From Paracoccaceae bacterium (GTDB lineage: Bacteria; Pseudomonadota; Alphaproteobacteria; Rhodobacterales; Rhodobacteraceae), in NCBI GenBank assembly GCA_030697175.1, contig JAUYQR010000012.1:59591-123590 (forward strand): a DNA stretch of 64,000 bases, read 5' to 3'. A model generated the notes under the pieces. That model was not told where the DNA came from and searched no databases. It saw nothing but the letters and a program-made list of their open reading frames with translations. Positions 1 to 41,243 of the stretch are shown here, one piece after another; position 1 is the first letter of the stretch, and each line of letters begins with the position of its first letter. The position numbers and the translations under genes are program-made.

Positions 1-124
1 CCTGCAACAGCCCCAGCGCCGCCGCGCGATGATCGGTGCGACTGCTTTCGACAAGGGTGATCGCCCGTGCCAGGGCCCGCCTGTCGCCTGCCAGAACCGC
101 TTTTGCCGTGGCTTCGATATCCAT
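1..124 (-). CDS. meaB: MeaB/ArgK-type G3E GTPase (methylmalonyl-CoA mutase accessory protein), N-terminal fragment; gene runs off the left edge
   Basis: Own reverse-strand translation from ATG (124-122): MDIEATAKAVLAGDRRALARAITLVESSRTDHRAAALGLLQ. The LAG-(D/N)RRALARAITLVES segment is the typical MeaB/ArgK N-terminus. Absent from the ORF track because it is truncated. Confidence 0.5.
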   Translation of the reverse strand, partial: MDIEATAKAVLAGDRRALARAITLVESSRTDHRAAALGLLQ

Positions 125-220
125 TCCCGCGCCTCCGCCCCCTTCATGCCGCAACTGCCCCGGCTTGGCGAGGGCCGTCGCAGCTCTGGCCAAGGCTGCC
201 TCGCCGCGCCATAAGGCGGC

Positions 221-2632
221 ATGGCCGATCTGCCCGTCACCAGCGCCCTGCCCGCCCTGCGCGACGCCATCGCCGCGCGCGGGATGGCCGTGCTGCAGGC
301 GCCACCCGGTGCGGGCAAGACCACGCTGGTGCCGCTGGATCTGCTGGCCTCGGGGCTGGTCGCGGGGCGCATCCTCTTGCTGGAACCGCGCCGTCTGGCG
401 GCCCGCGCCGCTGCCGAGCGGATGGCGGAAACGCTTGGCGAGAAGGTCGGGCAAACCGTGGGCTACCGCATCCGGGGTGAGGCGAGGGTATCCGCCGCGA
501 CCCGGATCGAGGTGGTGACCGAAGGCATCCTGACGCGAATGATCCAGTCTGATCCGGGGCTGGAGGGGACCGGGCTGGTGATCTTTGACGAATTTCACGA
601 ACGGTCGTTGCATGCCGATCTCGGGTTGGCGCTGTGCCTTGAGGTGCGCGGCGCGCTCAGGCCCGACCTGTTGCTTCTGGTCATGTCGGCCACGCTTGAT
701 GCAGCCCCGGTGGCGGCCCTGATGGGCGCAGCACCGATGGTGACGTCGGAAGGCCGTGCCTATCCGGTGGAGACGCGCTGGCTGCCCCGACCACCCGACG
801 CCTCGTTGCGGCTGGAGGCCGTCACCGCCGCAGCGATCCGCGCGGCACTGGGCGAGACGGAGGGTGGCATCCTCGTGTTCCTGCCCGGCGAGGGCGAGAT
901 CCGCCGCACGATCAACCTGTTGGGCGACCTGCCCGGCTGCACCATCCGCCCGCTTTTCGGCGCGATGGATTTTACGGCGCAGCGCGCGGCGCTGGCACCT
1001 GCGGTGGACCGCAAGATCGTGCTGGCGACGGCGATTGCGGAAACCTCGCTGACCCTGCCCGACATCCGGGTGGTGATCGACGCGGGCCACGCGCGACGGG
1101 CGCGGTTCGATCCGGCGTCGGGCATGTCGCGGCTGGTGACCGAACGGGTGACCAAGGCCGAGGCGGAACAGCGCCGCGGGCGCGCGGGGCGGGTGGCGGC
1201 GGGCATCTGCTACCGGCTGTGGAGCAGGGGCGAGGAGGGCGGGCTGGCCCCCTTTCCGCCCGCCGAGATCGAGGTGGCCGATCTGGCCCCCCTGGCACTG
1301 GACCTGGCGGAATGGGGATCGGCCGACCTGCCGTTCCTGACCGCGCCGCGCGAGGGGCCATTGGCCGAGGCGCGGGCGCTGCTGACGGGCCTTGGCGCGC
1401 TGGACGATGCAGGCCGGATCACGCCGCACGGCAAGGCGCTGGCGCGGCTGCCGCTGCACCCGCGGCTGGGCCACATGCTGACCCTTGCCGGGCCAAAGGC
1501 GGCCCCGCTGGCAGCGCTTCTGGCCGAACGCGACCCGTTGCGTGCCGCGCCGCCCGACCTTGCGCTGCGCCTGAAGGCGGTCGACCGGCCGGGGCCCGAG
1601 GCACACATGCCAACCATCCAGCGCATCCGCGACGAGGCGCGCCGTCTTGCCGCCGGCATGGCAAAGTCCGGTTACCCTGACTTTTCGCCGGCGCAGATGG
1701 CCGCGCTCGCCTACCCCGACCGGATCGGCCTGCGCCGCAAGGGCGACGCGCCGCGCTGGGTGCTGTCGGGCGGCAAGGGCGCGGTGATCGCCCCCGGCAC
1801 GCCTCTGGCCACGGCCCGGCTGATCGTGGCCACCGACCTTGACGGCGACCCGCGCGAGGCAACGATCCGCCAGGCCGCCGCCCTGACCGAGGCCGAGGTG
1901 CGCGAGGTCTTTGCCGACCGGATCACCTGGGTCGAGGTTTGCGAGTGGTCGCGCCGCGAAGCCCGCGTTCTGGCGCGCAGGCAGGAACGCTTTGGCGCGC
2001 TGGTGCTGGACGACCGGCCCTGGCCCGACGCCCCGCCAGACCGGATCGCGCGGGCAGAGCTGGATGGGCTGCGCCTGCTTGGCCTGCCCTGGACGCCCGC
2101 CGCCCGGCGCCTGCGCGCGCGCGCCGCACTGGCCCGCAGCGATGATTGGCCCGAGGTCAGCGATGCGGCGCTGCTTGCCAGCGCGGACGGCTGGCTCCTG
2201 GCGCACCTCGCCGGTCGCCGCAGCGCGGCCGACCTTGCGGCGCTTGACCTCACCGAACCCCTGAAGGCGCTGCTCGGCTGGGACCGGCTTGCGATCCTCG
2301 ACCGGCTTGTCCCGGCCAGCTTCACCACGCCCCTCGGCCGCGCCGTGCCGATCGATTACGACGGCGACGCCCCGGCGATCGAGGTGCGCCTGCAGGAGAT
2401 GTTCGGCGTCACCACCCATCCCCTGATCGGCGCCGCGCGCCAGCCCTTACGCATCACGCTCCTGTCGCCCGCCCGCGCGCCCGTGCAGGTCACGACCGAC
2501 CTGCCGCGCTTCTGGGCCACCTCCTACGCCGATGTGCGCAAGGACATGCGCGGCGCCTACCCGCGCCACCCCTGGCCCGAAGATCCCACCGTCGCCGAAC
2601 CCACCCTGAAGGCCAAGCCGCGCGGCACCTGA
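221..2632 (+). CDS. hrpB: ATP-dependent RNA helicase HrpB (DEAH-box)
   Basis: 803 aa. Walker A APPGAGKTT, DEAH-type box FDEFHERS, SAT motif (MSATL), and the HrpB-specific C-terminal domain ending ...YPRHPWPEDP. Confidence 0.9.
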   Translation: MADLPVTSALPALRDAIAARGMAVLQAPPGAGKTTLVPLDLLASGLVAGRILLLEPRRLAARAAAERMAETLGEKVGQTVGYRIRGEARVSAATRIEVVTEGILTRMIQSDPGLEGTGLVIFDEFHERSLHADLGLALCLEVRGALRPDLLLLVMSATLDAAPVAALMGAAPMVTSEGRAYPVETRWLPRPPDASLRLEAVTAAAIRAALGETEGGILVFLPGEGEIRRTINLLGDLPGCTIRPLFGAMDFTAQRAALAPAVDRKIVLATAIAETSLTLPDIRVVIDAGHARRARFDPASGMSRLVTERVTKAEAEQRRGRAGRVAAGICYRLWSRGEEGGLAPFPPAEIEVADLAPLALDLAEWGSADLPFLTAPREGPLAEARALLTGLGALDDAGRITPHGKALARLPLHPRLGHMLTLAGPKAAPLAALLAERDPLRAAPPDLALRLKAVDRPGPEAHMPTIQRIRDEARRLAAGMAKSGYPDFSPAQMAALAYPDRIGLRRKGDAPRWVLSGGKGAVIAPGTPLATARLIVATDLDGDPREATIRQAAALTEAEVREVFADRITWVEVCEWSRREARVLARRQERFGALVLDDRPWPDAPPDRIARAELDGLRLLGLPWTPAARRLRARAALARSDDWPEVSDAALLASADGWLLAHLAGRRSAADLAALDLTEPLKALLGWDRLAILDRLVPASFTTPLGRAVPIDYDGDAPAIEVRLQEMFGVTTHPLIGAARQPLRITLLSPARAPVQVTTDLPRFWATSYADVRKDMRGAYPRHPWPEDPTVAEPTLKAKPRGT

Positions 2633-2714
2633 CCTTTCAGCGCTGAAACAGGATGTGACCGCTAACGGCTTCCCCTTCGCGTCCAGTCCCGCTAGACGGA
2701 ACCGCACAAGAGGT

Positions 2715-2780
2715 CGCGTTCCCCTTCCTCTTTGCAAAAATATCCCACGGGAGGTCCGGAGGGTGTGAAACCCTCCGGGG
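2715..2780 (-). repeat. Intergenic hairpin-containing repeat element (family copy A, inverted)
   Basis: Reverse complement reads ccggagggtttcacaccctccgg-acctCCCGTGGGATATttttgcaaagaggaagggg. Same architecture as 6790-6855. Confidence 0.6.
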
Positions 2781-2834
2781 CCAGCCGCAAAGACCGCCCG
2801 CCAGAAACATCGCCAGACTGCAGGACCACGACCG

Positions 2835-4043
2835 ATGCACGCCACCCACGCCCAAGCCAAGGCCGCCCGCTGGGCGATTGCCGCGATGTTTTTCGCCAAC
2901 GGGTTCGTCATGGGGGCCTGGGCGCCGCAGATCCCGCTGCTGCTGCCGCGCCACGACATCACCGAAAGCACGCTGGGCCTGCTGATCCTTGTGCTTGGCC
3001 TTGGCGCGGTCGGCTCCATGCTGTTCGCGGGCCGGCTGATCAACCGCTTCGGTGGCCGCCGCGTGCTGTCGGTGTTCTCGCTGGCGCTGATTCCGGTGCT
3101 GCCGGCGGTGGTGTTTTCGCCTGACCTCGGCGCGCTGGCCCTGTTCATGGCGGTGTTCGGCGCGATGGCGGGCTGCATGGATGTGGCGATGAACAATCAG
3201 GCGGTCGACATCGAGCGCCGGCTTGACCGCGCCATCATGTCCTCATCGCACGGGTTCTGGAGCCTTGGCGGCTTTTTCGGCGGCTTTGCCGGCAGTTTCG
3301 TGATCGCGCATTGGGGGTCCGAGGTGCAGTCGCTGCTGACCGCCGCGATCACCGCCGCCATCGTCTTTGCCGCAATGCCTTTCCTTCTGCCCGACAGCCC
3401 GCGCCTCCAGCCCACTGCCGCGCAAACGGCGGCGCCGAAACAGCACCTTCTGCCGCGCGACCTTTCGGTCTGGCTGCTGGGCTTCATGGCGCTGGCCTCG
3501 ATGGTGCCGGAGGGCGCGGTGCTGGACTGGGCCGCGATCTACCTGCAGAAGGAACTGGGCTCCGACGTGTTCCGCTCGGGCCTTGCCTTTGCCTTCTTCG
3601 CGGGGGCAATGGCGATCATGCGGTTTGCCGGCGACGCCGTGCGCAACCGCTTTGGCGCGGTCCGCACGCTGCGCGCCTCGGGGCTGATCGGGGCGGCTGG
3701 CCTGATGGGCGGTGCGCTGGCGCCGGCCGACTGGATCGCCATCGTCAGCTTTGCCTTTGCGGGCCTTGGCATCGCCAACATGGTGCCGATCCTGTTTTCC
3801 GCCGCCGGCAATCACCCGCGGCTACCCTCGGCGCTGGCGATCTCGACGGTCACGATGGTCGGCTACTGCGGCATCCTCGTCGCCCCCTCGTCGATCGGCT
3901 TTGTGGCCGAGCATGTGGGGTTCAGTTCCACCTACGCGGCACTGTCGCTTTTGCTGGTCGTGGTCTCGCTGCTGGCCGGTCACACCGCCGATGCCGACCG
4001 CACCAGCGCGACACCGCTTCAGGCCGCCTCTGCCGCAAGCTGA
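2835..4043 (+). CDS. MFS transporter
   Basis: 402 aa, about 12 hydrophobic helices, GRLINRFGGRR loop motif between TM2 and TM3 typical of the major facilitator superfamily. Confidence 0.75.
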   Translation: MHATHAQAKAARWAIAAMFFANGFVMGAWAPQIPLLLPRHDITESTLGLLILVLGLGAVGSMLFAGRLINRFGGRRVLSVFSLALIPVLPAVVFSPDLGALALFMAVFGAMAGCMDVAMNNQAVDIERRLDRAIMSSSHGFWSLGGFFGGFAGSFVIAHWGSEVQSLLTAAITAAIVFAAMPFLLPDSPRLQPTAAQTAAPKQHLLPRDLSVWLLGFMALASMVPEGAVLDWAAIYLQKELGSDVFRSGLAFAFFAGAMAIMRFAGDAVRNRFGAVRTLRASGLIGAAGLMGGALAPADWIAIVSFAFAGLGIANMVPILFSAAGNHPRLPSALAISTVTMVGYCGILVAPSSIGFVAEHVGFSSTYAALSLLLVVVSLLAGHTADADRTSATPLQAASAAS

Positions 4044-5167: not shown

Positions 5168-5725
5168 ATGACCGACAGCACGCTTGCCACCCGCCGCGGC
5201 CTGCCCGCCGAATATCAGGTGATCCTTGCGGAACTGCCGCGCAAGGGCTGGCCCGACCACCGCGATTTCAACGGGCTGGCGGCCTTCTGGCTGGACCGGC
5301 ATCTGGCCTTCCGCCACACCCTGCAACGCCTGCGCGCCGATACCGAGGCCCGGATCGACCGCAAGCTGGCCCCCGAGGCCTTCGCAGGGCGGCTGGTGCG
5401 GCACGGCTCGGGCCTGTTGTCCGACCTGATCGGCCACCACCAGATCGAGGACGACGCCTATTTTCCGCAACTGGCCCGGCTGGAACCGCGCATCGCGCGC
5501 GGCTTTGACATGCTGGACGCCGATCACCACGCGCTGCACGACCTGATCGACCGCTTTGCCAAGGGCGCCAACGCCGCCCTTCAGGCCAAGGACGAAGCCA
5601 CCGGGCGCGAAAGGACCGCGCGCTTTCTGACCGACCTCAAGGATTTCGACCGCCTGCTCGTCCGCCATCTGGACGACGAGGAAGACCTTGTGCTGCCGGT
5701 CGTGCTGAAACACCGGGTCGGCTGA
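5168..5725 (+). CDS. Hemerythrin-like domain protein
   Basis: Start trimmed to MTDSTLATRRG (ATG at 5168). His/Asp-rich helical motifs (DRHLAFRH, HHQIEDDAYFP, DADHHALHDLI, LVRHLDDEEDLV) resemble hemerythrin HHE cation-binding domains. Confidence 0.55.
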   Translation: MTDSTLATRRGLPAEYQVILAELPRKGWPDHRDFNGLAAFWLDRHLAFRHTLQRLRADTEARIDRKLAPEAFAGRLVRHGSGLLSDLIGHHQIEDDAYFPQLARLEPRIARGFDMLDADHHALHDLIDRFAKGANAALQAKDEATGRERTARFLTDLKDFDRLLVRHLDDEEDLVLPVVLKHRVG

Positions 5726-5770
5726 CCCCGGTCAGCGCTTTGCTCTTTTCACAAATACTCATCTGTCCGG

Positions 5771-5795
5771 CGAGACGCGGCCCTGCCGCGTCTCG
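5771..5795. terminator. 10-bp-stem hairpin between convergent genes (possible bidirectional terminator)
   Basis: cgagacgcgg-ccctg-ccgcgtctcg, between the hemerythrin-like gene (+) and argF (-). There is no strong T-run. Confidence 0.4.
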
Positions 5796-5842
5796 ACTGA
5801 AAGGGCGTGCGGCGGAACGCCGCTCCGCTTGATACCCCGGTG

Positions 5843-6769
5843 TCAGACCCCCAGACACCAGCGCATCACGGCCTTTTGCGCGTGCAGCCGGTTTTCCGCC
5901 TCGTCGAACACCACCGAATGCGGGCCGTCCATCACCGCGCTCGTGGCTTCGTCGTTCCGGTGCGCCGGCAGGCAGTGCATGAACAGCGCGTCGGGTTTGG
6001 CGCGGCTCATCAGCGCCTCGTTGACCTGATAGGGGCGCAACTGGTTGTGGCGGCGTTCCTTGGCGCTTTCGGGATCGTGCATCGAGACCCAGGTATCGGT
6101 GACGACGAGGTCGGCGCCCTCGACGGCGGCGAACGGGTCGCGCTGCACGGTGATCTTCGAGCCCTTGGCGCGGGCGAAGGCGATGAACTTGTCCTCCGGG
6201 TCCAGGGTTTCCGGGCCGGTGAAGGTGAAATCGAAACCGAACTGCCCGGCGGCATGCAGGAACGAGGCGCAGACGTTGTTGCCGTCACCGGCCCAGACCA
6301 CCTTCTTGCCGGCGATCGGGCCGCGATGTTCCTCGTAGGTCATCACGTCGGCCATGATCTGGCAGGGATGGGTGCGGTTTGTCAGCCCGTTGATCACCGG
6401 GACGGTGGCGTGTTCGGCCATCTCCAGCAGCGTCGCCTCCTCGAAGGTGCGGATCATGATCAGGTCGACGTAGCGGCTGAGGACGCGGGCGGTGTCGGCG
6501 ATGGTTTCGCCGTGGCCAAGCTGCATTTCCTTGCCCGACAGCACCATCGTCTCGCCGCCCATCTGCCGCACGCCGACGTCAAAGCTGACGCGGGTGCGGG
6601 TCGAGGGTTTCTCGAAGATCAGCGCGACCATGTGGCCTTTCAGCGGCTGGTCATCGTCTGTCATGCCCTTCGGGCGGCCATTGCGCGCGGCCTTCATCGC
6701 GTGGGCGGAGTTGATCATGCCCCGCAATTCGGTGGCTTCGGTGGTGTGGATGTCGAGAAAATGTTTCAT
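5843..6769 (-). CDS. argF: Ornithine carbamoyltransferase
   Basis: 308 aa. STRTRVSFD carbamoyl-phosphate motif, HPCQ and HCLP motifs. Confidence 0.92.
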
Positions 6770-6789
6770 GCGCTGCGCTCTTTGACGAG

Positions 6790-6855
6790 GGGCGGGGGGG
6801 GGTCACACCCCCCGCACCCCCCGTGGGATATCTGGAGAAGGGGAAGCCTGAAGCG
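6790..6855 (+). repeat. Intergenic hairpin-containing repeat element (family copy B)
   Basis: ggggggtcacacccccc hairpin followed by CCCGTGGGATAT and GAAGGGGAA. Aligns without gaps over about 40 nt with the reverse complement of 2715-2780. Confidence 0.6.
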
Positions 6856-6861
6856 GGGCCA

Positions 6862-8052
6862 TCAGATGGCGGTCGACACGGCGCTTGCGGCGCGGTCCAG
6901 GCGGGTGAGGGCTTCGGTGATGTCGGTCTCGGTGATGTTCAGCGCGGGAAGCAGGCGCAGCACGTTGTCGGCTGCGGCGACGGTGAGGACGCCTGCGGCG
7001 TAGCCTGCCTTGACCATGTCGGTGTTGGGGGCCTTGCATTTGAGGCCGAGCATCAGGCCCTGACCGCGCACCGCCTCGAACACCTTCGGGTGGCGGGCGA
7101 CGAGGCTTTCGAGGCCTTGCCGAAACAGCGCGGCCTTGCGGCTGACATCGGCCAGGAAGGCGTCGTCGCCGACGATATCGAGGACTGCGGTGCCGACCGC
7201 GCAGGCGAGGGGGTTGCCGCCGTAGGTGGAGCCGTGGCTGCCCGCCGTCATGCCCGAGGCCGCGCGTTCGGTGGCGAGGACCGCGCCCAGCGGAAAGCCG
7301 CCACCGATGCCCTTGGCGACCATCATGATGTCAGGGGTCACACCCGCCCATTCATGCGCGAAAAGCCGGCCGGTGCGGCCCATGCCGCATTGCACCTCGT
7401 CGAAGATCAGGAGCGTGCCGGTCGTGTCGCACAGATCGCGCAGGCCCTTGAGGCACTGGTCGGGCACGACGCGGATGCCGCCCTCACCCTGGATCGGTTC
7501 GATGATCACGGCGCAGGTCTGGTCGGTGATCGCGGCGCGGATCGCGGCGTGATCCTCGGCCGAGGTCGGCCATTTCAGCTGGCGAAAGCCGGGCATCAGG
7601 GGCCCGTAGCCCTTGACCATCTTTTCCGACCCTGCGGCCGCGATGGCAGCGGTGGAGCGGCCGTGGAAGGCGCCTTCGAAGGAGATGAACTCGATCCGTT
7701 CGGGGTGACCGGCCTCGTGATGGAACTTGCGCGCCATCTTGATCGCCAGCTCGGCGGCTTCTGTCCCGGAATTGGTGAAGAACACCGTATCGGCGAAGGT
7801 GCGGTCGACCAGCATCTCGGCCAGGTGTTCCTGTTCGGGGATGCGGTAGACATTCGAGACGTGCCAGAGCTTTTGCGCCTGATCGGTCAGCGCCTGCACC
7901 AGGGCGGGGTGCGCATGGCCAAGGGCGTTGACCGCGATGCCGCCGCCGAGATCGAGGTAGCGCGTGCCATCCTCGGCCAGAAGCCAGGAGCCGCTGCCGG
8001 ACACGAAGGCCAGCGGCGCGCGATTGTAGGTGGGCAGGACGGCGGGGATCAT
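6862..8052 (-). CDS. argD: Acetylornithine aminotransferase (class III PLP aminotransferase)
   Basis: Start trimmed to [16 protein letters not shown], the canonical ArgD N-terminus. Also has the [11 protein letters not shown] and [13 protein letters not shown]-lysine region, and sits upstream of argF in the same orientation. Confidence 0.9.
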
Positions 8053-8456
8053 GCGAGGGGCCCTTTGGAAGGAAGGCCTAAGCCCTAAAGGCAGGCCATG
8101 CGGGGTGTCAACGGGGCGAGAGGGAATGCCCCGGACCAAGGGGGCAAGCGAAAGCGGTCGCTCAGGAGCGACGGCGTCGCTGGAAAGGGGCGGTCCGCGT
8201 GGTCATCACGCACCGCGTAATCGAGGGCGACAGCAAAGGGAAGCGGAAAATCGGGCGCAGGGTTCGGCACGATTGGACGCGGTGTGAGTGCCGGATGGCG
8301 ACTGCGGGCGCGTTTCGCGGGGCTTGGCGGGCGGGCCGCTGCGAAACTGCCCCGACGCCCCGCTTGATCTTCCGGCCGCCGCCTTGTATCCCGCACCGTC
8401 GCGGTTACAATGCCGCCTGAAGCAATTTCCCTTTGCCGCCAACCGGAGAGCTACGC

Positions 8457-9053
8457 ATGTCCTGGACCGACGAGCGCGTCGAGACGCTGAAGCGCATGTG
8501 GGGCGAAGGCCAATCGGCCAGCCAGATCGCCAAGGAACTGGGCGGTGTCACCCGCAATGCCGTGATCGGCAAGGTGCACCGGCTTGGCCTGTCGAACCGC
8601 GTCGGCGGCAAGGACGAGGAGGAGGAGGCACCGGTTGCCGCCGCCACCGCAGCCCCTGCACGACCGGAGCCTGCCGCACCTCGCACCGAGCCGCGCCCGG
8701 CCGCAGACCCCGCCCCGCGGCCGGCAGCGGCGGCCCCGGCGTCGCCATCAAACGTGACACCGCTGCCGGTGCGCAAGGCGATCATCCCCGCAGGTCAGCC
8801 CCTGCCGCCGCAGCCGTCGCTGAACGAGATCAGCCCCGAGGCGCTGGCATCGGTGCGCGAGGTTGAAAAGCGCGCCAAGAAGCTGACGCTGATGGAACTG
8901 ACCGAACGCACCTGCAAGTGGCCGATCGGCGACCCGGCGACCGAGGATTTCTGGTTCTGCGGCCTGCCCTCGCTGCCGGGAAAACCGTATTGCGAGGCGC
9001 ATGTCGGTGTGGCGTTCCAGCCGATGAGCGCGCGGCGGGATCGTCGCCGCTGA
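8457..9053 (+). CDS. gcrA: Cell-cycle transcriptional regulator GcrA
   Basis: MSWTDERVETLKRMWGEGQSASQIAKELGGVTRNAVIGKVHRLGL N-terminal domain, Pro/Ala-rich linker, C-terminal CKWPIGDP...FCG...YCEAH motif. Confidence 0.9.
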   Translation: MSWTDERVETLKRMWGEGQSASQIAKELGGVTRNAVIGKVHRLGLSNRVGGKDEEEEAPVAAATAAPARPEPAAPRTEPRPAADPAPRPAAAAPASPSNVTPLPVRKAIIPAGQPLPPQPSLNEISPEALASVREVEKRAKKLTLMELTERTCKWPIGDPATEDFWFCGLPSLPGKPYCEAHVGVAFQPMSARRDRRR

Positions 9054-37024: not shown

Positions 37025-38371
37025 TCAGACCGTCACGACCAACCGCGCTGGCAGCGTCATCCGGACCGCAAGCCCGCCAAGCCCGGCCGAGGCGTCAAGG
37101 TCAAGCGAGGCCCCATAGGCGCGCAACAGATCAATCGCGATCGCCAGACCAAGGCCGGTGCCGGGCTTTGAGGTATCAAGCCGCCCGCCCGAGCGCAGCG
37201 CCTCGGCGCGGTCGGCCTCGGGGATGCCCGGCCCGTCATCCTCGACCCTGATCTCGATCCCGTCGCCCACCCGCCGCGCGGAAAGCGAGATCGAGTGGGC
37301 GCACCATTTCAGCGCGTTATCAAGGACATTGCCCAGCACCTCTTCGATGTCCTGCGCATCGACCCGGATCGTGAGGCCGGGGTCGCAGACCGTGGCCAGC
37401 GATTTGCCATCGCGCGCGGCCATCGCATTGAACAGCCGCGAAAACCGGTTGATCGAATGGCTGAGGTCGGTGCGGGCGGCAGTGGATTCGCCGGTGTTCG
37501 ACATCCTGATCCGTGCCAAGGACCGGCCAAGCTGGGCATCGAGCCGGTCCAGCGCATCAAGCGCCTTTTCGACCTTGGCCCGCTTTTCCCTGAGCGCCAT
37601 CAATTCGTTGCGCAGGATGGCGCTTGGGGTTTTCAGCGCATGGGCCAGATCGGCCGCCTGCCGCCGGGCGCGCCCGACGATGTCACGGTTCCGTTCCAGC
37701 AACGAGTTGATATCGGCGACCAGGGGGGCCACTTCCTCGGGGTAATCCGCCTCGCTCAGCGCCTCGTCGCGTTCCCAGCGGTGTGCCACGTCCTGACGCA
37801 GCTTTTCAAGCGGTCGCAGGATCGCCGCGGTCTGCGCCAGCACGCTGAACAGACCGAGGCCCGCCACCAGCGCGAAGGCCACCAGAAGGCTGCGCCGCAT
37901 CTCTTCGCGTTCGGCGTTCAGCCCGGCGCGGCTTTGCCCCACGGCAACCGTCCAGGCGCTGCCATCCTCCAGCGTGATGATCTGGTAGGCCGCGCGCAGG
38001 GTTTCGCCCTCGGGGCCAGAGACGTTGCCGATCAACAGGCGGTTCGACAGGTCGATCGGCCTGGGCAGGACGCTCTCGAACAGCGAGGCTGAACTGGTTA
38101 TCTGCCCGTTCTGACCGGTTACCTGCCAGTATTTGCCGGAATAGGGCATCTGGTATTCGGGATCGAAGATCAACTCGCCCAGCCGCGCCGGATCGTCACC
38201 GACATTGTTCAGGGCAGCGACTATGCGGGTGTGGTGTTCGGTCAGCGTGGCATCAAAGCGCTCCAGCACCTTGAGGTTGAGGTAGGAATACAAAAGGAAC
38301 GTGCCGGCGATCATTGCGACCAGCGCCGACAGGCTGCCGCTTAGCCACGCCCGTTTGCGCAGCGACAGCAT
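37025..38371 (-). CDS. Sensor histidine kinase (PhoQ/QseC-like, two TM plus periplasmic domain)
   Basis: H-box DLAHALKTP, N-box NVLDNALKW, G-boxes DDGPGI and GTGLGLAI. Confidence 0.85.
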   Translation of the reverse strand: MLSLRKRAWLSGSLSALVAMIAGTFLLYSYLNLKVLERFDATLTEHHTRIVAALNNVGDDPARLGELIFDPEYQMPYSGKYWQVTGQNGQITSSASLFESVLPRPIDLSNRLLIGNVSGPEGETLRAAYQIITLEDGSAWTVAVGQSRAGLNAEREEMRRSLLVAFALVAGLGLFSVLAQTAAILRPLEKLRQDVAHRWERDEALSEADYPEEVAPLVADINSLLERNRDIVGRARRQAADLAHALKTPSAILRNELMALREKRAKVEKALDALDRLDAQLGRSLARIRMSNTGESTAARTDLSHSINRFSRLFNAMAARDGKSLATVCDPGLTIRVDAQDIEEVLGNVLDNALKWCAHSISLSARRVGDGIEIRVEDDGPGIPEADRAEALRSGGRLDTSKPGTGLGLAIAIDLLRAYGASLDLDASAGLGGLAVRMTLPARLVVTV

Positions 38372-39030
38372 CAGCCCTGGTCGATCATGTATCCGCGCCC
38401 GCGCATGGTCTGGATAAGATCGGGCCCCAGTTTCTTCCGCAGCCGGTTGATGAACACGGCGATCGTGTTGGAGTCACGGTCGCCGTCATATTCGTAGATA
38501 TGCTCTGACAGTTCGGTCCGCGAAATCAGCCGCCCGGTATTGTGCATGAGGTAGGACAGCACCGCCACTTCTTGCGCGGTCAGGTCTACCGGCACCCCCT
38601 CCACCGTGGCGCGGCCGGTGCGGGTATCGAACACCACGCCGTTCTTTTCGACCAAGGGGTTCGTGCGCCCCGAACTGCGCCGCAGCATCGCGCGCACCCG
38701 CGCCGCAAGCTCTGGCAGGTGGAACGGTTTGGTCATGTAGTCGTCGGCCCCGGCATCCAGCCCGTCGACCCGGTCGGACCAGCCGTCGCGTGCCGTCAGG
38801 ATCAGCACCGGCGTCGAAATGCCCTTGGCCCGCCATTCCTTCAGCACCGAGGTGCCGTCACGCAACGGCAGGCCGATGTCGAGGATGATCATGTCATAAG
38901 GTTCGGTCGCCCCAAGGAAGCAGGCTTCCTGGCCGTCGCGCGCAATGTCGACCACCCGGCCCTCGGCCACCAGGAGGCGCTTGATCTGGTCGCACAGGAC
39001 CGGTTCGTCTTCTGCAAGCAATATTCTCAT
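38371..39030 (-). CDS. OmpR/PhoB-family response regulator
   Basis: REC domain (MRILLAEDE, ILDIGLP, LTAR...K) plus a winged-helix domain (TMRGRGY). Its stop overlaps the kinase start. Confidence 0.9.
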   Translation of the reverse strand: MRILLAEDEPVLCDQIKRLLVAEGRVVDIARDGQEACFLGATEPYDMIILDIGLPLRDGTSVLKEWRAKGISTPVLILTARDGWSDRVDGLDAGADDYMTKPFHLPELAARVRAMLRRSSGRTNPLVEKNGVVFDTRTGRATVEGVPVDLTAQEVAVLSYLMHNTGRLISRTELSEHIYEYDGDRDSNTIAVFINRLRKKLGPDLIQTMRGRGYMIDQG

Positions 39031-39071
39031 TTGACCGAGACTATACGCGAACTTGGCAACAATTAAGGCGG

Positions 39072-39611
39072 TTAATTCTTTCCGCCGCCATTTCCACCAC
39101 CATTGCCACCACCATTGCCGCCCCCGTTGCCACCCCCATTGCCACCGCCGTTGCCACCGCCGTTGCCACCGCCACCACCGTTGCCGCCGCCGCCACCGTT
39201 GCCGCCACCGTTGCCGTTGCCGCCCGCCTTGCCCGCAGCGCCGGCTTTGCTGGTGCCATTGGCCTTGCCCGCGCCCGAGCGTGCCGCGGTGGTGACCAGC
39301 CGACCCATTGCAGACGTCGTCGTGACCCGCTCTCCGGTTCGTGCATTGATGATCACGCTGACGAGCGAGCCGTCACTCTTTTTCAGCACGATCCGGTAGA
39401 AAACATCGTCAGCCGCGAAGGCCCGCGCCTCGATCGGCTCGCCGCCGTTGGCTTTGGCGACCTGGTCAATCACCCGCTTCAGGCTGATGGCATTGCCGGC
39501 GGTGACGATGCCGCGCAACTCCGCGGCGTCGACCTCGCGGACGGTCGATCCCAGCACCGGCACGGTAAATGCCAGGCTCGCCACAAGCACGAGGACCGCT
39601 GTTTGCTTCAT
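39072..39611 (-). CDS. Secreted PepSY-domain protein with a C-terminal tail made only of Gly and Asn
   Basis: Signal peptide MKQTAVLVLVASLAF and a PepSY core (ISLKRVIDQV...YRIVLKKSDGSLVSVIINARTGERV). The tail is NGNGGGNGGGGGNGGGGGNGGGN(GGGN)n...GGGKN. First gene of the PepSY-RR-HK operon. Confidence 0.75.
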   Translation of the reverse strand: MKQTAVLVLVASLAFTVPVLGSTVREVDAAELRGIVTAGNAISLKRVIDQVAKANGGEPIEARAFAADDVFYRIVLKKSDGSLVSVIINARTGERVTTTSAMGRLVTTAARSGAGKANGTSKAGAAGKAGGNGNGGGNGGGGGNGGGGGNGGGNGGGNGGGNGGGNGGGNGGGNGGGKN

Positions 39612-39797
39612 TCGGGTTTTCTATCAAGTTCGACGTGAACTGGCGATTAACAATCGGTTCGCTGCGAGTTTAACCGAGCTGGTGTCTAAGCGTTCCACAG
39701 ACCTGCGATTCGGCGGCTGCAACTTGCACGTGTCGACGCAGAAATCGAAACAACCGTAGGTTCCGAAAGGTTCCGACCGAACGCGCAGAGGCAGACC

Positions 39798-40646
39798 ATG
39801 ATGATTTCTACCAAGCAACTCTTGAAAGCCTGTTCCCTGACGATCGCCCTTCTGGGGTCGGCCGCCATCGTGACCACCGTGTCGATGCCCGATGCAGCCT
39901 ATGCCAAGAATGGCAATGGCGGCGGCAATGGGAACGGCGGCGGCAATGGCGGCGGCAACGGAAATGGCAACGGCGGCGGCAACAGCGCACGGTCCGAAAG
40001 CAGCTCCAAGGCCTCCGGCGGCGGCGCTGAGGCCAAGTCGACGGCGAAAAGCGAAAAGTCCTCGGCCAAGAAATCCGGCAAGAAGAGCCTCTCGTCCCTG
40101 CTTGGCGTCAGCGCTTCTGACCTTGGCGCGCTGAATGCGGCCCACGCCAATCCCAACGCCCTGAAGAACGCGTCGCCCAATTCGCGCGTCGGCCGCATCG
40201 CTGCCTACCGCGACTCGGTTCTTGCCGGCGACGTGATTCAGGCGGATCTGGATGCCAAGGCTCTGGCGCTGGCCGACCTGCCCGAGCCAACCCGCACCGT
40301 TGCGGATATCGACACCGAACTGGCAACCCTTGATGGCACGATCTCGACCAAGACCACCGAGATCGCCGACCTTCAGGCACAGCTTGGCGGCGAAAACGAC
40401 GAAGAGATCCAGGGGCAGATCGACACCCTGAACGGCGAAATCGAAGCCGCACAACTGCAGCAGGAAGCTCTTGCTGGCGAGCGTGCGGATACCGTTGCCT
40501 ACGAAACGCTGGCCGGCGAAGTCGCCGATCTGGAACAGCAGGTCGCGGATCAGACCGCGGTCGAGCGTTCGCTTCTGGAGGCCGCCGCCAACAAGCCGGT
40601 GACCGACGAAGTGGAAGCAGCAGTCAAGATCCTGCTCGGTCTCTAA
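39798..40646 (+). CDS. Secreted protein: Gly/Asn tract, Ser/Lys-rich region, conserved LGALNAAHANPNAL...SRVGRIAAY block, acidic coiled coil
   Basis: Signal peptide with AYA cleavage site. NGNGGGNGNGGGNGGGNGNGNGGGN directly follows the signal. C-terminal half is heptad-like and Glu/Gln/Ala/Leu-rich. Followed by a terminator hairpin. Confidence 0.7.
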   Translation: MMISTKQLLKACSLTIALLGSAAIVTTVSMPDAAYAKNGNGGGNGNGGGNGGGNGNGNGGGNSARSESSSKASGGGAEAKSTAKSEKSSAKKSGKKSLSSLLGVSASDLGALNAAHANPNALKNASPNSRVGRIAAYRDSVLAGDVIQADLDAKALALADLPEPTRTVADIDTELATLDGTISTKTTEIADLQAQLGGENDEEIQGQIDTLNGEIEAAQLQQEALAGERADTVAYETLAGEVADLEQQVADQTAVERSLLEAAANKPVTDEVEAAVKILLGL

Positions 40647-40667
40647 CCGGCATTCAAGGCTGCAGGG

Positions 40668-40700
40668 ACTGCACCGGATATCCCCTTCCGGTGCAGTTTC
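40668..40700 (+). terminator. Rho-independent terminator of the 39798-40646 gene
   Basis: actgcaccgg-atatcccctt-ccggtgcagt followed by ttt. Confidence 0.6.
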
Positions 40701-40756
40701 CTTGTCGTCTTGCGGCAGGCCAAATGAACGGCAGGCTACAAGAACGGCAGGCCAAA

Positions 40757-40784
40757 TGAAAAAGGCCACCCGTCGGGTGGCCTT
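40757..40784 (-). terminator. Rho-independent terminator of the 40808-41080 ORF
   Basis: aaggccaccc-gtc-gggtggcctt. On the minus strand it is followed by TTTTTC. Confidence 0.65.
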
Positions 40785-40807
40785 GCCTGCTGAAACGAAA
40801 GGGCCGA

Positions 40808-41080
40808 TCAGGCGGCGATGGTGCGCGATGCGATCCGGTCGAGGGCGACCACCACGTCTTCGACTGGCGGGAAGCGGTTGAATTCCCCGGCAAACAGCGC
40901 AACACGGGCCGTCGCCGCCGCCATTGAGGAGCGCGGCTCATTTGGCCCGAGGTCCGCTGTCAGAGAGAGACGATCAAGGTCATTCGTCGATCGCAGCATG
41001 TTCAGCCCCCATCCCCCGGTCGAACCCGCCTGGATTCTGGCAAAAAAATTCCGACTCACCACGCCTTGATCTTGCAACAC
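40808..41080 (-). CDS. Hypothetical small protein
   Basis: 63-90 aa depending on the start (M at 41080 or 40999). Host-like GC3 usage and its own terminator 25 bp downstream. No recognised family. Confidence 0.4.
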   Translation of the reverse strand: MLQDQGVVSRNFFARIQAGSTGGWGLNMLRSTNDLDRLSLTADLGPNEPRSSMAAATARVALFAGEFNRFPPVEDVVVALDRIASRTIAA

Positions 41081-41243
41081 TGTTCTTTAACCAGCCGCGA
41101 ACCCGCCGTTCACATTGCGTTAAATTTCGCGCCGGCGCCCGGTCCTGCCGCCACCCCTGATGGCTTGCGCGGTCGAGGGCCGTTCTGCCCCCCGCGCAGG
41201 GCGGTCGGTCAGGCGTGCAACTGCGGGCAACAAGGCCTGGGTG

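Follow-up and report, generated by a model that had tools for sequence, protein, structure and literature searches.

The 64,000-nucleotide stretch of Paracoccaceae bacterium DNA analysed here (the window; assembly GCA_030697175.1, contig JAUYQR010000012.1, positions 59,591 to 123,590) contains an operon for a small exported protein, a response regulator and a sensor histidine kinase, and, divergent from it, the gene of an exported coiled-coil protein (CC). The small exported protein, called PepSY-GN here, has a PepSY-like core and ends in a tail of glycine and asparagine, and CC carries a similar glycine/asparagine (G/N) tract at the start of its mature chain. The pairing of PepSY-GN and CC is genuine, conserved and linked to the two-component system, and the two tracts are real coding features that go beyond chance. 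Taken as a whole, we lean, with modest confidence, towards reading the locus as a DbfQRS-like sensor module in which the PepSY protein carries a disordered tail and the system has a co-regulated exported partner, CC. The signalling half resembles known modules of the DbfQRS and Bqs type, whereas neither the G/N tails nor the CC family has been described before. The host genome (3.67 Mb, 65% GC) belongs to the GTDB genus Tabrizicola.

The linkage of the two genes was followed in a pattern scan of 185,579 species genomes, from which the best 80 CC loci were kept; these come from named genomes and are biased towards one clade of the CC protein, clade A. In 73 of these 80 loci the PepSY-GN operon lies divergently and directly upstream of CC. 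The remaining loci comprise two with the regulator and kinase genes convergent and downstream (one of them on the contig of genome G004, where a PepSY gene is present too), three unlinked ones and two on contigs that are too short. Linked loci span at least 12 named genera, namely Tabrizicola, Rhodobacter, Ruegeria, Pseudorhodobacter, Silicimonas, Litoreibacter, Brevirhabdus, Aliiroseovarius, Oceanomicrobium, Gemmobacter, Boseongicola and Cypionkella, and their regulator orthologs are 66-98% identical. The PepSY gene shares an operon with the kinase and regulator genes in every locus examined. In an even sample of 151 genera of Rhodobacteraceae, full-length PepSY-GN is present in 10, always in such an operon, and CC adjoins it in 6 of these 10. 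Among congeners of the host, four species have both genes side by side and two have neither. The flanking genes, a MsbA-like ABC transporter gene downstream and a PanB-like gene beyond the kinase, are common to the closest relatives only; because they are not conserved, the unit is taken to be four genes.

A first-pass annotation of the window, made from the sequence alone, had proposed the pair and had staked it on its occurrence beyond this genome, on tracts that are not strain-specific and on CC having no established unrelated function. The data went its way on every count: the neighbourhood is conserved as described, no species of the genus has one gene without the other, nearly all orthologs keep the tracts, and no unrelated function has come to light for CC.

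The features of the locus are collected in Table 1. PepSY-GN is separated from the regulator gene of the same operon by 41 nucleotides (nt), the stop codon of the regulator gene overlaps the start of the kinase gene, and 186 bp lie between the divergent PepSY-GN and CC genes. Two further open reading frames (ORFs) called mechanically, 39103-39399 (+) and 39041-39346 (-), cross the tract in other frames (PPPLPPPL... and ATVAATVA...); they are by-products of the GGC/AAC repeats and not genes.

Table 1. Genes, protein segments and control elements of the PepSY-GN/CC locus, in window coordinates (aa, amino acids; AF2, AlphaFold2; pLDDT, predicted local distance difference test; pI, isoelectric point)
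Feature	Position	Strand	Description or basis
Sensor histidine kinase	37025-38371	minus	448 aa
Response regulator	38371-39030	minus	OmpR/PhoB-family, 219 aa
PepSY-GN	39072-39611	minus	179 aa, first gene of the operon (ORF)
PepSY-GN C-terminal G/N tail, residues 130-177	39081-39224	minus	48 aa of only G/N, then KN and stop
PepSY-like core, residues 25-113	39273-39539	minus	AF2 secondary structure and confidence, Foldseek, family profile
-10-like TAGAAA preceded by TG (TG-A-TAGAAA)	39618-39623	minus	6 nt before the PepSY ATG
Putative regulator box GTTAAT-CGCCA-GTTCAC	39635-39651	minus	two direct half-sites 11 bp apart; end 23 nt before ATG
Extra half-site-like GTT(T/A)AAC	39668-39674	minus	upstream of the box, on its CC side; 23 nt (about two phases of 11 bp) between the two starts
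CC (coiled-coil protein)	39798-40646	plus	282 aa, exported, unnamed family (ORF)
CC N-terminal G/N tract, residues 38-62	39909-39983	plus	25 aa of only G/N, NGNGGGNGNGGGNGGGNGNGNGGGN
Basic Ser/Lys-rich disordered segment, residues 63-100	39984-40097	plus	pI 10.2; length and sequence vary in alignment
First conserved core block SDLGALNAAHANPNALKNASPNSRVGRIAAYRD	40110-40217	plus	alignment; pLDDT 75-94
Acidic antiparallel helical hairpin, sequence variable	40218-40562	plus	AF2
Second conserved core block ERSLLEAAANKPVTDEVEAAVKILLGL	40563-40643	plus	alignment; marks clade A

The tracts are statistically striking. The PepSY-GN tail reads GGNGNGGGNGGGGGNGGGGGN(GGGN)6GGG; the first-pass annotation had described a signal peptide, a PepSY core and some 45-50 residues of G and N only, and the 48 found, followed by KN, agree with it. 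Each tract lies at a free end of its mature chain, C-terminal in PepSY-GN and N-terminal in CC, and both are predicted by AF2 to be disordered (pLDDT of about 40 in the PepSY-GN tail). A six-frame scan of the 3.67-Mb genome found pure G/N runs of more than 10 residues only at these two places, the next longest being the 10-residue GGNGNGGGGN in a 501-codon open frame on contig C20:86652-88157 (+). A G/N or G/N/S tract stands at the same terminus in nearly all of 120 CC and 83 PepSY-GN homologs, the latter being all that were found, and the orthologs keep its reading frame. The tails contain about 55% G and 22-25% N plus a little S, K and A; D, E and hydrophobic residues are nearly absent. Aspartate and serine codons are both one-step intermediates between AAC and GGC, yet Asp makes up about 0.6% of the PepSY tails and Ser about 10%. 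The asparagines are encoded by AT-rich codons in a genome of 65% GC, and GGT (32% vs 10% genome-wide) and AAT (45% vs 13%) are enriched in the tracts, which lowers the repetitiveness of their DNA. In addition, most PepSY tails end in G-(K/R)-(N/K/P), with a basic penultimate residue. Because of these data on composition, codons, end residues and persistence, we consider that the tails are held by selection on composition and approximate length rather than on exact sequence, with slippage turning over their units.

Some known kinds of repeat were compared with the tracts. RTX repeats (GGXGXDXUX) are ruled out, since the tracts have no Asp and no hydrophobic residue, and N-glycosylation sequons were ruled out on reading the sequences. 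The Gly-Asn/Gly-Ala repeat regions of the mycobacterial PE_PGRS proteins (review PMC12209268) share long Gly-Gly-Asn type tracts, export, a high-GC host and variation in repeat number. However, PE_PGRS proteins carry a PE domain and use type VII secretion, both absent here, and their repeats form domains of hundreds of residues, whereas the present ones are terminal tails of 25-100 residues on Gram-negative periplasmic proteins; as neither PepSY-GN nor CC has a Pfam PE domain, this identity is ruled out as well. Literature searches on G/N-tailed PepSY proteins or on Gly-Asn periplasmic repeats returned nothing relevant. A different family of small PepSY-like proteins (P0200 and P0201) also ends in a G/N tail, so the combination of PepSY and G/N tail may have arisen more than once. 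At locus L037 (genome G034, 7690-8943), G/K-rich tails replace G/N in both partners (...KGKGASKSKGKGKGNN in the PepSY protein and AKSDKSKGKSKGKGKQNK in CC), the one case that resembles a parallel change in both tails.

PepSY-GN consists of a signal peptide, a PepSY-like core, which is its sole folded domain, and the disordered tail; it has no Cys and no lipobox. The core is modelled by AF2 with pLDDT above 95 as a helix on a three- to four-stranded antiparallel sheet, the PepSY fold. The best PDB match of the model in Foldseek is the PepSY protein YpmB (probability 0.99, root-mean-square deviation 2.3 Å over 63 columns), another PepSY protein, UipA, is also among the top matches, and the family profile finds the PepSY/M4 propeptide 9vy3 in PDB (E 0.003). 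Pfam PepSY is detected in 16 of 42 family members at E <0.01, with a best value of 7e-6. By predicted fold and family profile, then, PepSY-GN is a PepSY protein, with a Pfam score of its own that stays below threshold.

The kinase has two transmembrane helices around a periplasmic domain of about 120 aa, followed by PhoQ-like HAMP and HATPase domains; Pfam recognizes HATPase_c (1e-15) and HisKA in it, and PF26769 (HAMP_PhoQ) in orthologous kinases. Its best NCBIfam match is PhoQ (5e-41), with 140.8 bits below the equivalog cut-off of 497, and PmrB follows a similar pattern (91 bits, cut-off 314). The regulator contains Response_reg (8e-24) and Trans_reg_C (4e-22), and its best NCBIfam match, PmrA (3e-62), reaches 210 bits, below the equivalog cut-off of 330. 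As judged by these profiles, the likeness of the two proteins to PhoQ, PmrB and PmrA goes no further than the family level.

Upstream of the PepSY gene a GTTCAY-N5-GTTCAY box is found in a constant position in 11 of 11 loci and again in 73 of 73, with a conserved TGnTAn element about 11 nt past it; box and -10-like element are both kept in all 73. The regulator would bind this box. The arrangement suggests a promoter of the PhoB/PmrA-activated type, in which the box takes the place of the -35 element and the operon is autoregulated. In Tabrizicola and Rhodobacter the ATG follows the box after 23-24 nt; in Ruegeria, where a Shine-Dalgarno-like GAGG is present, the spacing is 38-53 nt. Since 23-24 nt leave no room for a leader, the mRNA of the operon is predicted to be leaderless or nearly so in the first two genera and leadered in Ruegeria. 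GTTTAAC or GTTGAAC occurs at the offset of the extra half-site in most of the 73 loci; as this element extends the array towards CC, the divergent promoters probably share one control region. Box, -10-like element and half-site together form a conserved array within 39612-39700. A scan of the host genome with a weight matrix derived from 11 boxes ranked the operon's own site joint second, and the other top sites were mostly intragenic or before unrelated ORFs. Among them are an 18-bit site before a TadE-like gene (C14:181112), a hint of a regulon or chance, and a site 460 bp downstream of CC. In the presumed 5' untranslated region of CC, 22-40 nt before its ATG, there is a direct repeat (AGGTTCCGAA x1.9 at 39758-39776) that is not similar to the regulator box.

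CC begins with a signal peptide ending in AYA, followed by K, the G/N tract, the basic Ser/Lys segment, the SDLGALNAAHANPNALKNASPNSRVGRIAAYRD block, the acidic hairpin and the ERSLLEAAANKPVTDEVEAAVKILLGL block. The first-pass annotation, which had listed a G/N start of the mature chain, a Ser/Lys segment, a conserved block and an acidic coiled coil, proved correct in every detail. The sequence ...LLKAC, with Cys at residue 13, precedes the hydrophobic core of the signal peptide, and cleavage is expected at a canonical signal-peptidase I site between AYA and K; a lipoprotein is ruled out, no L-[AS]-[GA]-C being present at the end of the signal peptide. The block LGALNAAHANPNALKNASPNSRVGRIAAY, placed after the Ser/Lys segment and before the acidic helical part, had been believed to recur in uncharacterised proteins, and indeed LGALNAAHA...SRVGRIAAY is the invariant core of a large unnamed family. 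Its invariant columns are S107, L109-A114, A117, A121, A125, S129, R130, G132 and A135; those of the second block are L260, E261, A263, N265, K266 and V268. AF2 places helices at residues 130-159, 168-196 and 202-264 (pLDDT about 98), and the acidic helical part contains 31 D/E vs 7 K/R.

The search for CC homologs gave 529 sequences, and the CC profile 1114 clusters at 50% identity. Nothing in Pfam, NCBIfam, a PDB sequence-profile search or a Foldseek search of PDB matches CC beyond coiled-coil noise. Family members with two tandem copies of the core unit include P0250, P0257, P0264, P0318 and P0327, and P0327 is also a minimal member in which both conserved blocks are joined with almost no hairpin. 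For this reason the two-block core is regarded as the real domain and the acidic hairpin as a variable insert. P0264 has a weak OmpH/Skp match through its coiled coil. The CC protein tree splits into clade A, with the C-terminus LLEAAANKPVT and linkage to the two-component system in 6 of 8 genera, and clade B, with ...NGRTLSPEA... (loci L017-L019, L021, L028 and L030) and a place between argG and ilvA (threonine dehydratase), so that the second block separates the two-component-linked clade from the argG-ilvA clade. In the host genome the argG-ilvA site is empty (about 165 bp, contig C20:573384-573550).

Several known systems help to interpret the locus. In Vibrio cholerae, the small periplasmic PepSY protein DbfQ binds the sensor domain of the kinase DbfS and shifts it towards phosphatase activity, in a pathway (DbfRS) activated by outer-membrane damage (PMC12714742). 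Modules combining PepSY with a two-component system occur >60-fold above chance across bacteria and across phyla, sometimes in divergent order (PMC12714742). Like DbfQ, PepSY-GN is a small Sec-exported protein with a single PepSY domain, encoded by the first gene of a presumably autoregulated operon, beside the genes of an OmpR-family regulator and of a kinase that senses the periplasm, and it lies within four genes of both, which is how DbfQRS-like modules are delimited. However, DbfQ (135 aa) has no low-complexity tail and no coiled-coil partner gene has been described with it; moreover, kinase binding and the response to envelope damage have been shown for DbfQ, whereas for PepSY-GN we infer them.

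In the BqsPQRST system of Pseudomonas aeruginosa (PA2656-2659), PepSY genes also stand upstream of a PmrA/PmrB-like system (PMC12714742). Its regulator likewise binds a direct-repeat box, but there are two PepSY proteins, neither of them G/N-tailed, and the half-site is TTAAG instead of GTTCAT. BqsS senses Fe(II) through an RExxE motif. This motif is absent from the periplasmic segment of the Tabrizicola kinase (residues about 31-150), where the nearest sequence is REEMR, so that the kinase differs in this from a BqsS-type Fe(II) sensor. The alphaproteobacterial systems ExoR-ExoS/ChvI, NtrZ-NtrYX and PlrP-PlrSR (PMC13001219) also rely on an exported accessory protein, encoded alongside, that modulates the kinase from the periplasm; these components have unrelated folds (e.g., Sel1 repeats) and no G/N tract.

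In the reading that we favour, the regulator would activate its own operon from the GTTCAY-N5-GTTCAY box standing in for a -35 element. The PepSY core, by analogy with DbfQ and DbfS of V. cholerae, would bind the periplasmic sensor domain of the kinase and set its balance between kinase and phosphatase activities, and a perturbation of the envelope would shift that balance. The disordered, uncharged tail most likely acts as a flexible tether or spacer that would govern where the core is located or how available it is in the periplasm. CC is most likely a co-regulated envelope protein, which would be an output or a feedback partner of the two-component system.

Several observations weigh against this reading. 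Each family occurs without the other: PepSY-GN operons without any CC gene are found in genomes G126, G050, G052 and G075, and clade B CC proteins, G/N tract included, occupy their argG-ilvA site in six genera that have no PepSY-GN. Therefore, CC cannot be essential to signalling. The genome-wide matrix scan gave no clear regulon and no second box directly before CC. The PepSY-GN sequence itself obtains 16.8 bits against Pfam PF03413, where the gathering cut-off is 24 (E 0.009; residues 41-94 aligned to model positions 1-55 of 60). Finally, between close relatives the sole insertions and deletions in PepSY-GN and CC are in-frame and inside the tracts.

This last observation is what would be expected if the tracts were neutral filler produced by slippage of GGC/AAC hexanucleotide units, with only the folded domains mattering and the genes being merely co-regulated neighbours. 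The tract DNA contains repeats of period 6, 12 and 18. In the 73 paired loci the PepSY tail has a median length of 48 aa (range 19-102) and the CC tract one of 25 aa (range 2-57), and some CC proteins have lost it. Turnover is visible at short distances: a relative at about 93% nucleotide identity differs by 22 residues in the PepSY tail (48 vs 26) and has a CC tract of 27 residues instead of 25, and orthologs at 95% identity have tails of equal length in which the GN, GGGN and GGGGGN units follow a different order. However, the tracts persist across at least 12 genera and in two unrelated families, and do so in the face of a mutational bias towards GC. They have next to no acidic or hydrophobic residues, their penultimate position stays basic, their synonymous codons are varied and no such tract exists elsewhere in the genome. 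A purely neutral origin by slippage is rather unlikely.

A further explanation follows the first-pass annotation: PepSY-GN and CC would associate directly, or attach to a shared anchor, through their G/N tracts, for example as a polar zipper or by homotypic low-complexity association, and the complex would be the input of the kinase. The genome's only two G/N tracts do lie in adjacent, co-inherited genes, both are kept in about 90% of the 73 pairs and their lengths correlate weakly (rho 0.36, p 0.003, uncorrected for phylogeny). The mature proteins are also oppositely charged, with a pI of 10.3 for PepSY-GN and 4.5 for CC, which is compatible with mutual contact but proves nothing. Against a pairing of tracts, the CC tract is shorter than 10 residues in 7 of the 73 linked pairs and degenerate beside intact PepSY tails in genomes G022, G149 and G004, each tracted protein exists without its partner, and AF2 finds no structure in either tract. 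In addition, Ser and Asn fractions do not co-vary between partner tracts; with the weak correlation of lengths, this speaks against their concerted evolution. Binding through the tracts is distinctly unlikely and is not required; what stands of the original proposal is the conserved pair and its attachment to the two-component system.

The tails might also be working parts of another kind. Asn-Gly is the dipeptide that deamidates fastest spontaneously. In the tails nearly every Asn precedes Gly or Ser, and acidic residues are excluded. It is a long shot that the 10-25 Asn-Gly sites age by deamidation and serve as a clock, a pH sensor or a covalent cross-linker. An ageing tail may gain negative charge and isoAsp/succinimide reactivity, altering how PepSY engages the kinase or the acidic CC, and the adjacent Lys-rich segments or the cell wall may be the targets of cross-linking. 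An alternative of the same kind is that the tails, being thin and uncharged, are threaded into an envelope structure or tethered to it, and that the kinase may in this way read envelope geometry. RcsF is a lipoprotein threaded through outer-membrane proteins, and the length of its disordered linker couples envelope geometry to signalling. The likeness, which is a lead only, consists in a disordered, length-critical segment on a component of an envelope-stress sensor; in contrast to RcsF, neither lipidation nor threading is indicated for PepSY-GN or CC.

It is scarcely credible that the tracts act as inverted repeats (about 71 nt, 726 nt apart) flipping the 0.7-kb segment between them (the PepSY body with both promoters and the CC signal peptide), and so swap promoters and create chimeras by phase variation, for although an in-register crossover would stay in frame, the arms are about 80% complementary (reported arm pairs reach at most 89%), the orientation is constant in 73 of 75 linked loci (in the two exceptions the whole operon has been relocated) and no PepSY-CC chimera exists among 600 homologs. 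The arms have no long perfect matches and would be poorly suited to homologous recombination, their DNA identity is lowered further by the varied synonymous codons, and there is no recombinase gene nearby.

If the DbfQRS-like reading with its tailed PepSY protein and CC partner is correct, the locus bears on a general question, since PepSY-two-component modules are widespread and the coupling of PepSY to the state of the envelope is unexplained even for DbfQ. This subfamily provides two natural handles on it, the extreme G/N tail on the PepSY protein and a partner gene with a like tail. Should the tails prove to have a function, they would be one of few bacterial examples in which a low-complexity region of the periplasm is under selection for its composition and is linked to signalling. 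The analysis further delimits a large family of alphaproteobacterial exported proteins, so far without a name, that have a two-block core, and yields a regulator box together with a predicted leaderless promoter.

Two observations concern the surroundings of the unit. Tad/Flp pilus genes (TadE, TadG, RcpC and small pilins) adjoin PepSY-GN operons without CC at loci L039 (Ruegeria atlantica assembly, 1-3650) and L036 (genome G075, 5451-8202). In the window, CC is separated from the convergent ABC transporter gene by an unusually long gap of 600 bp (40647-41243). This gap contains three copies of a 16-nt unit (40713-40760); on the minus strand, a strong hairpin terminator (40762-40784) and an ORF of 90 aa (40808-41080); and, at about 41108-41124 on the plus strand, the box-like site GTTCACATTGCGTTAAA, which scores 16 bits in the matrix scan.

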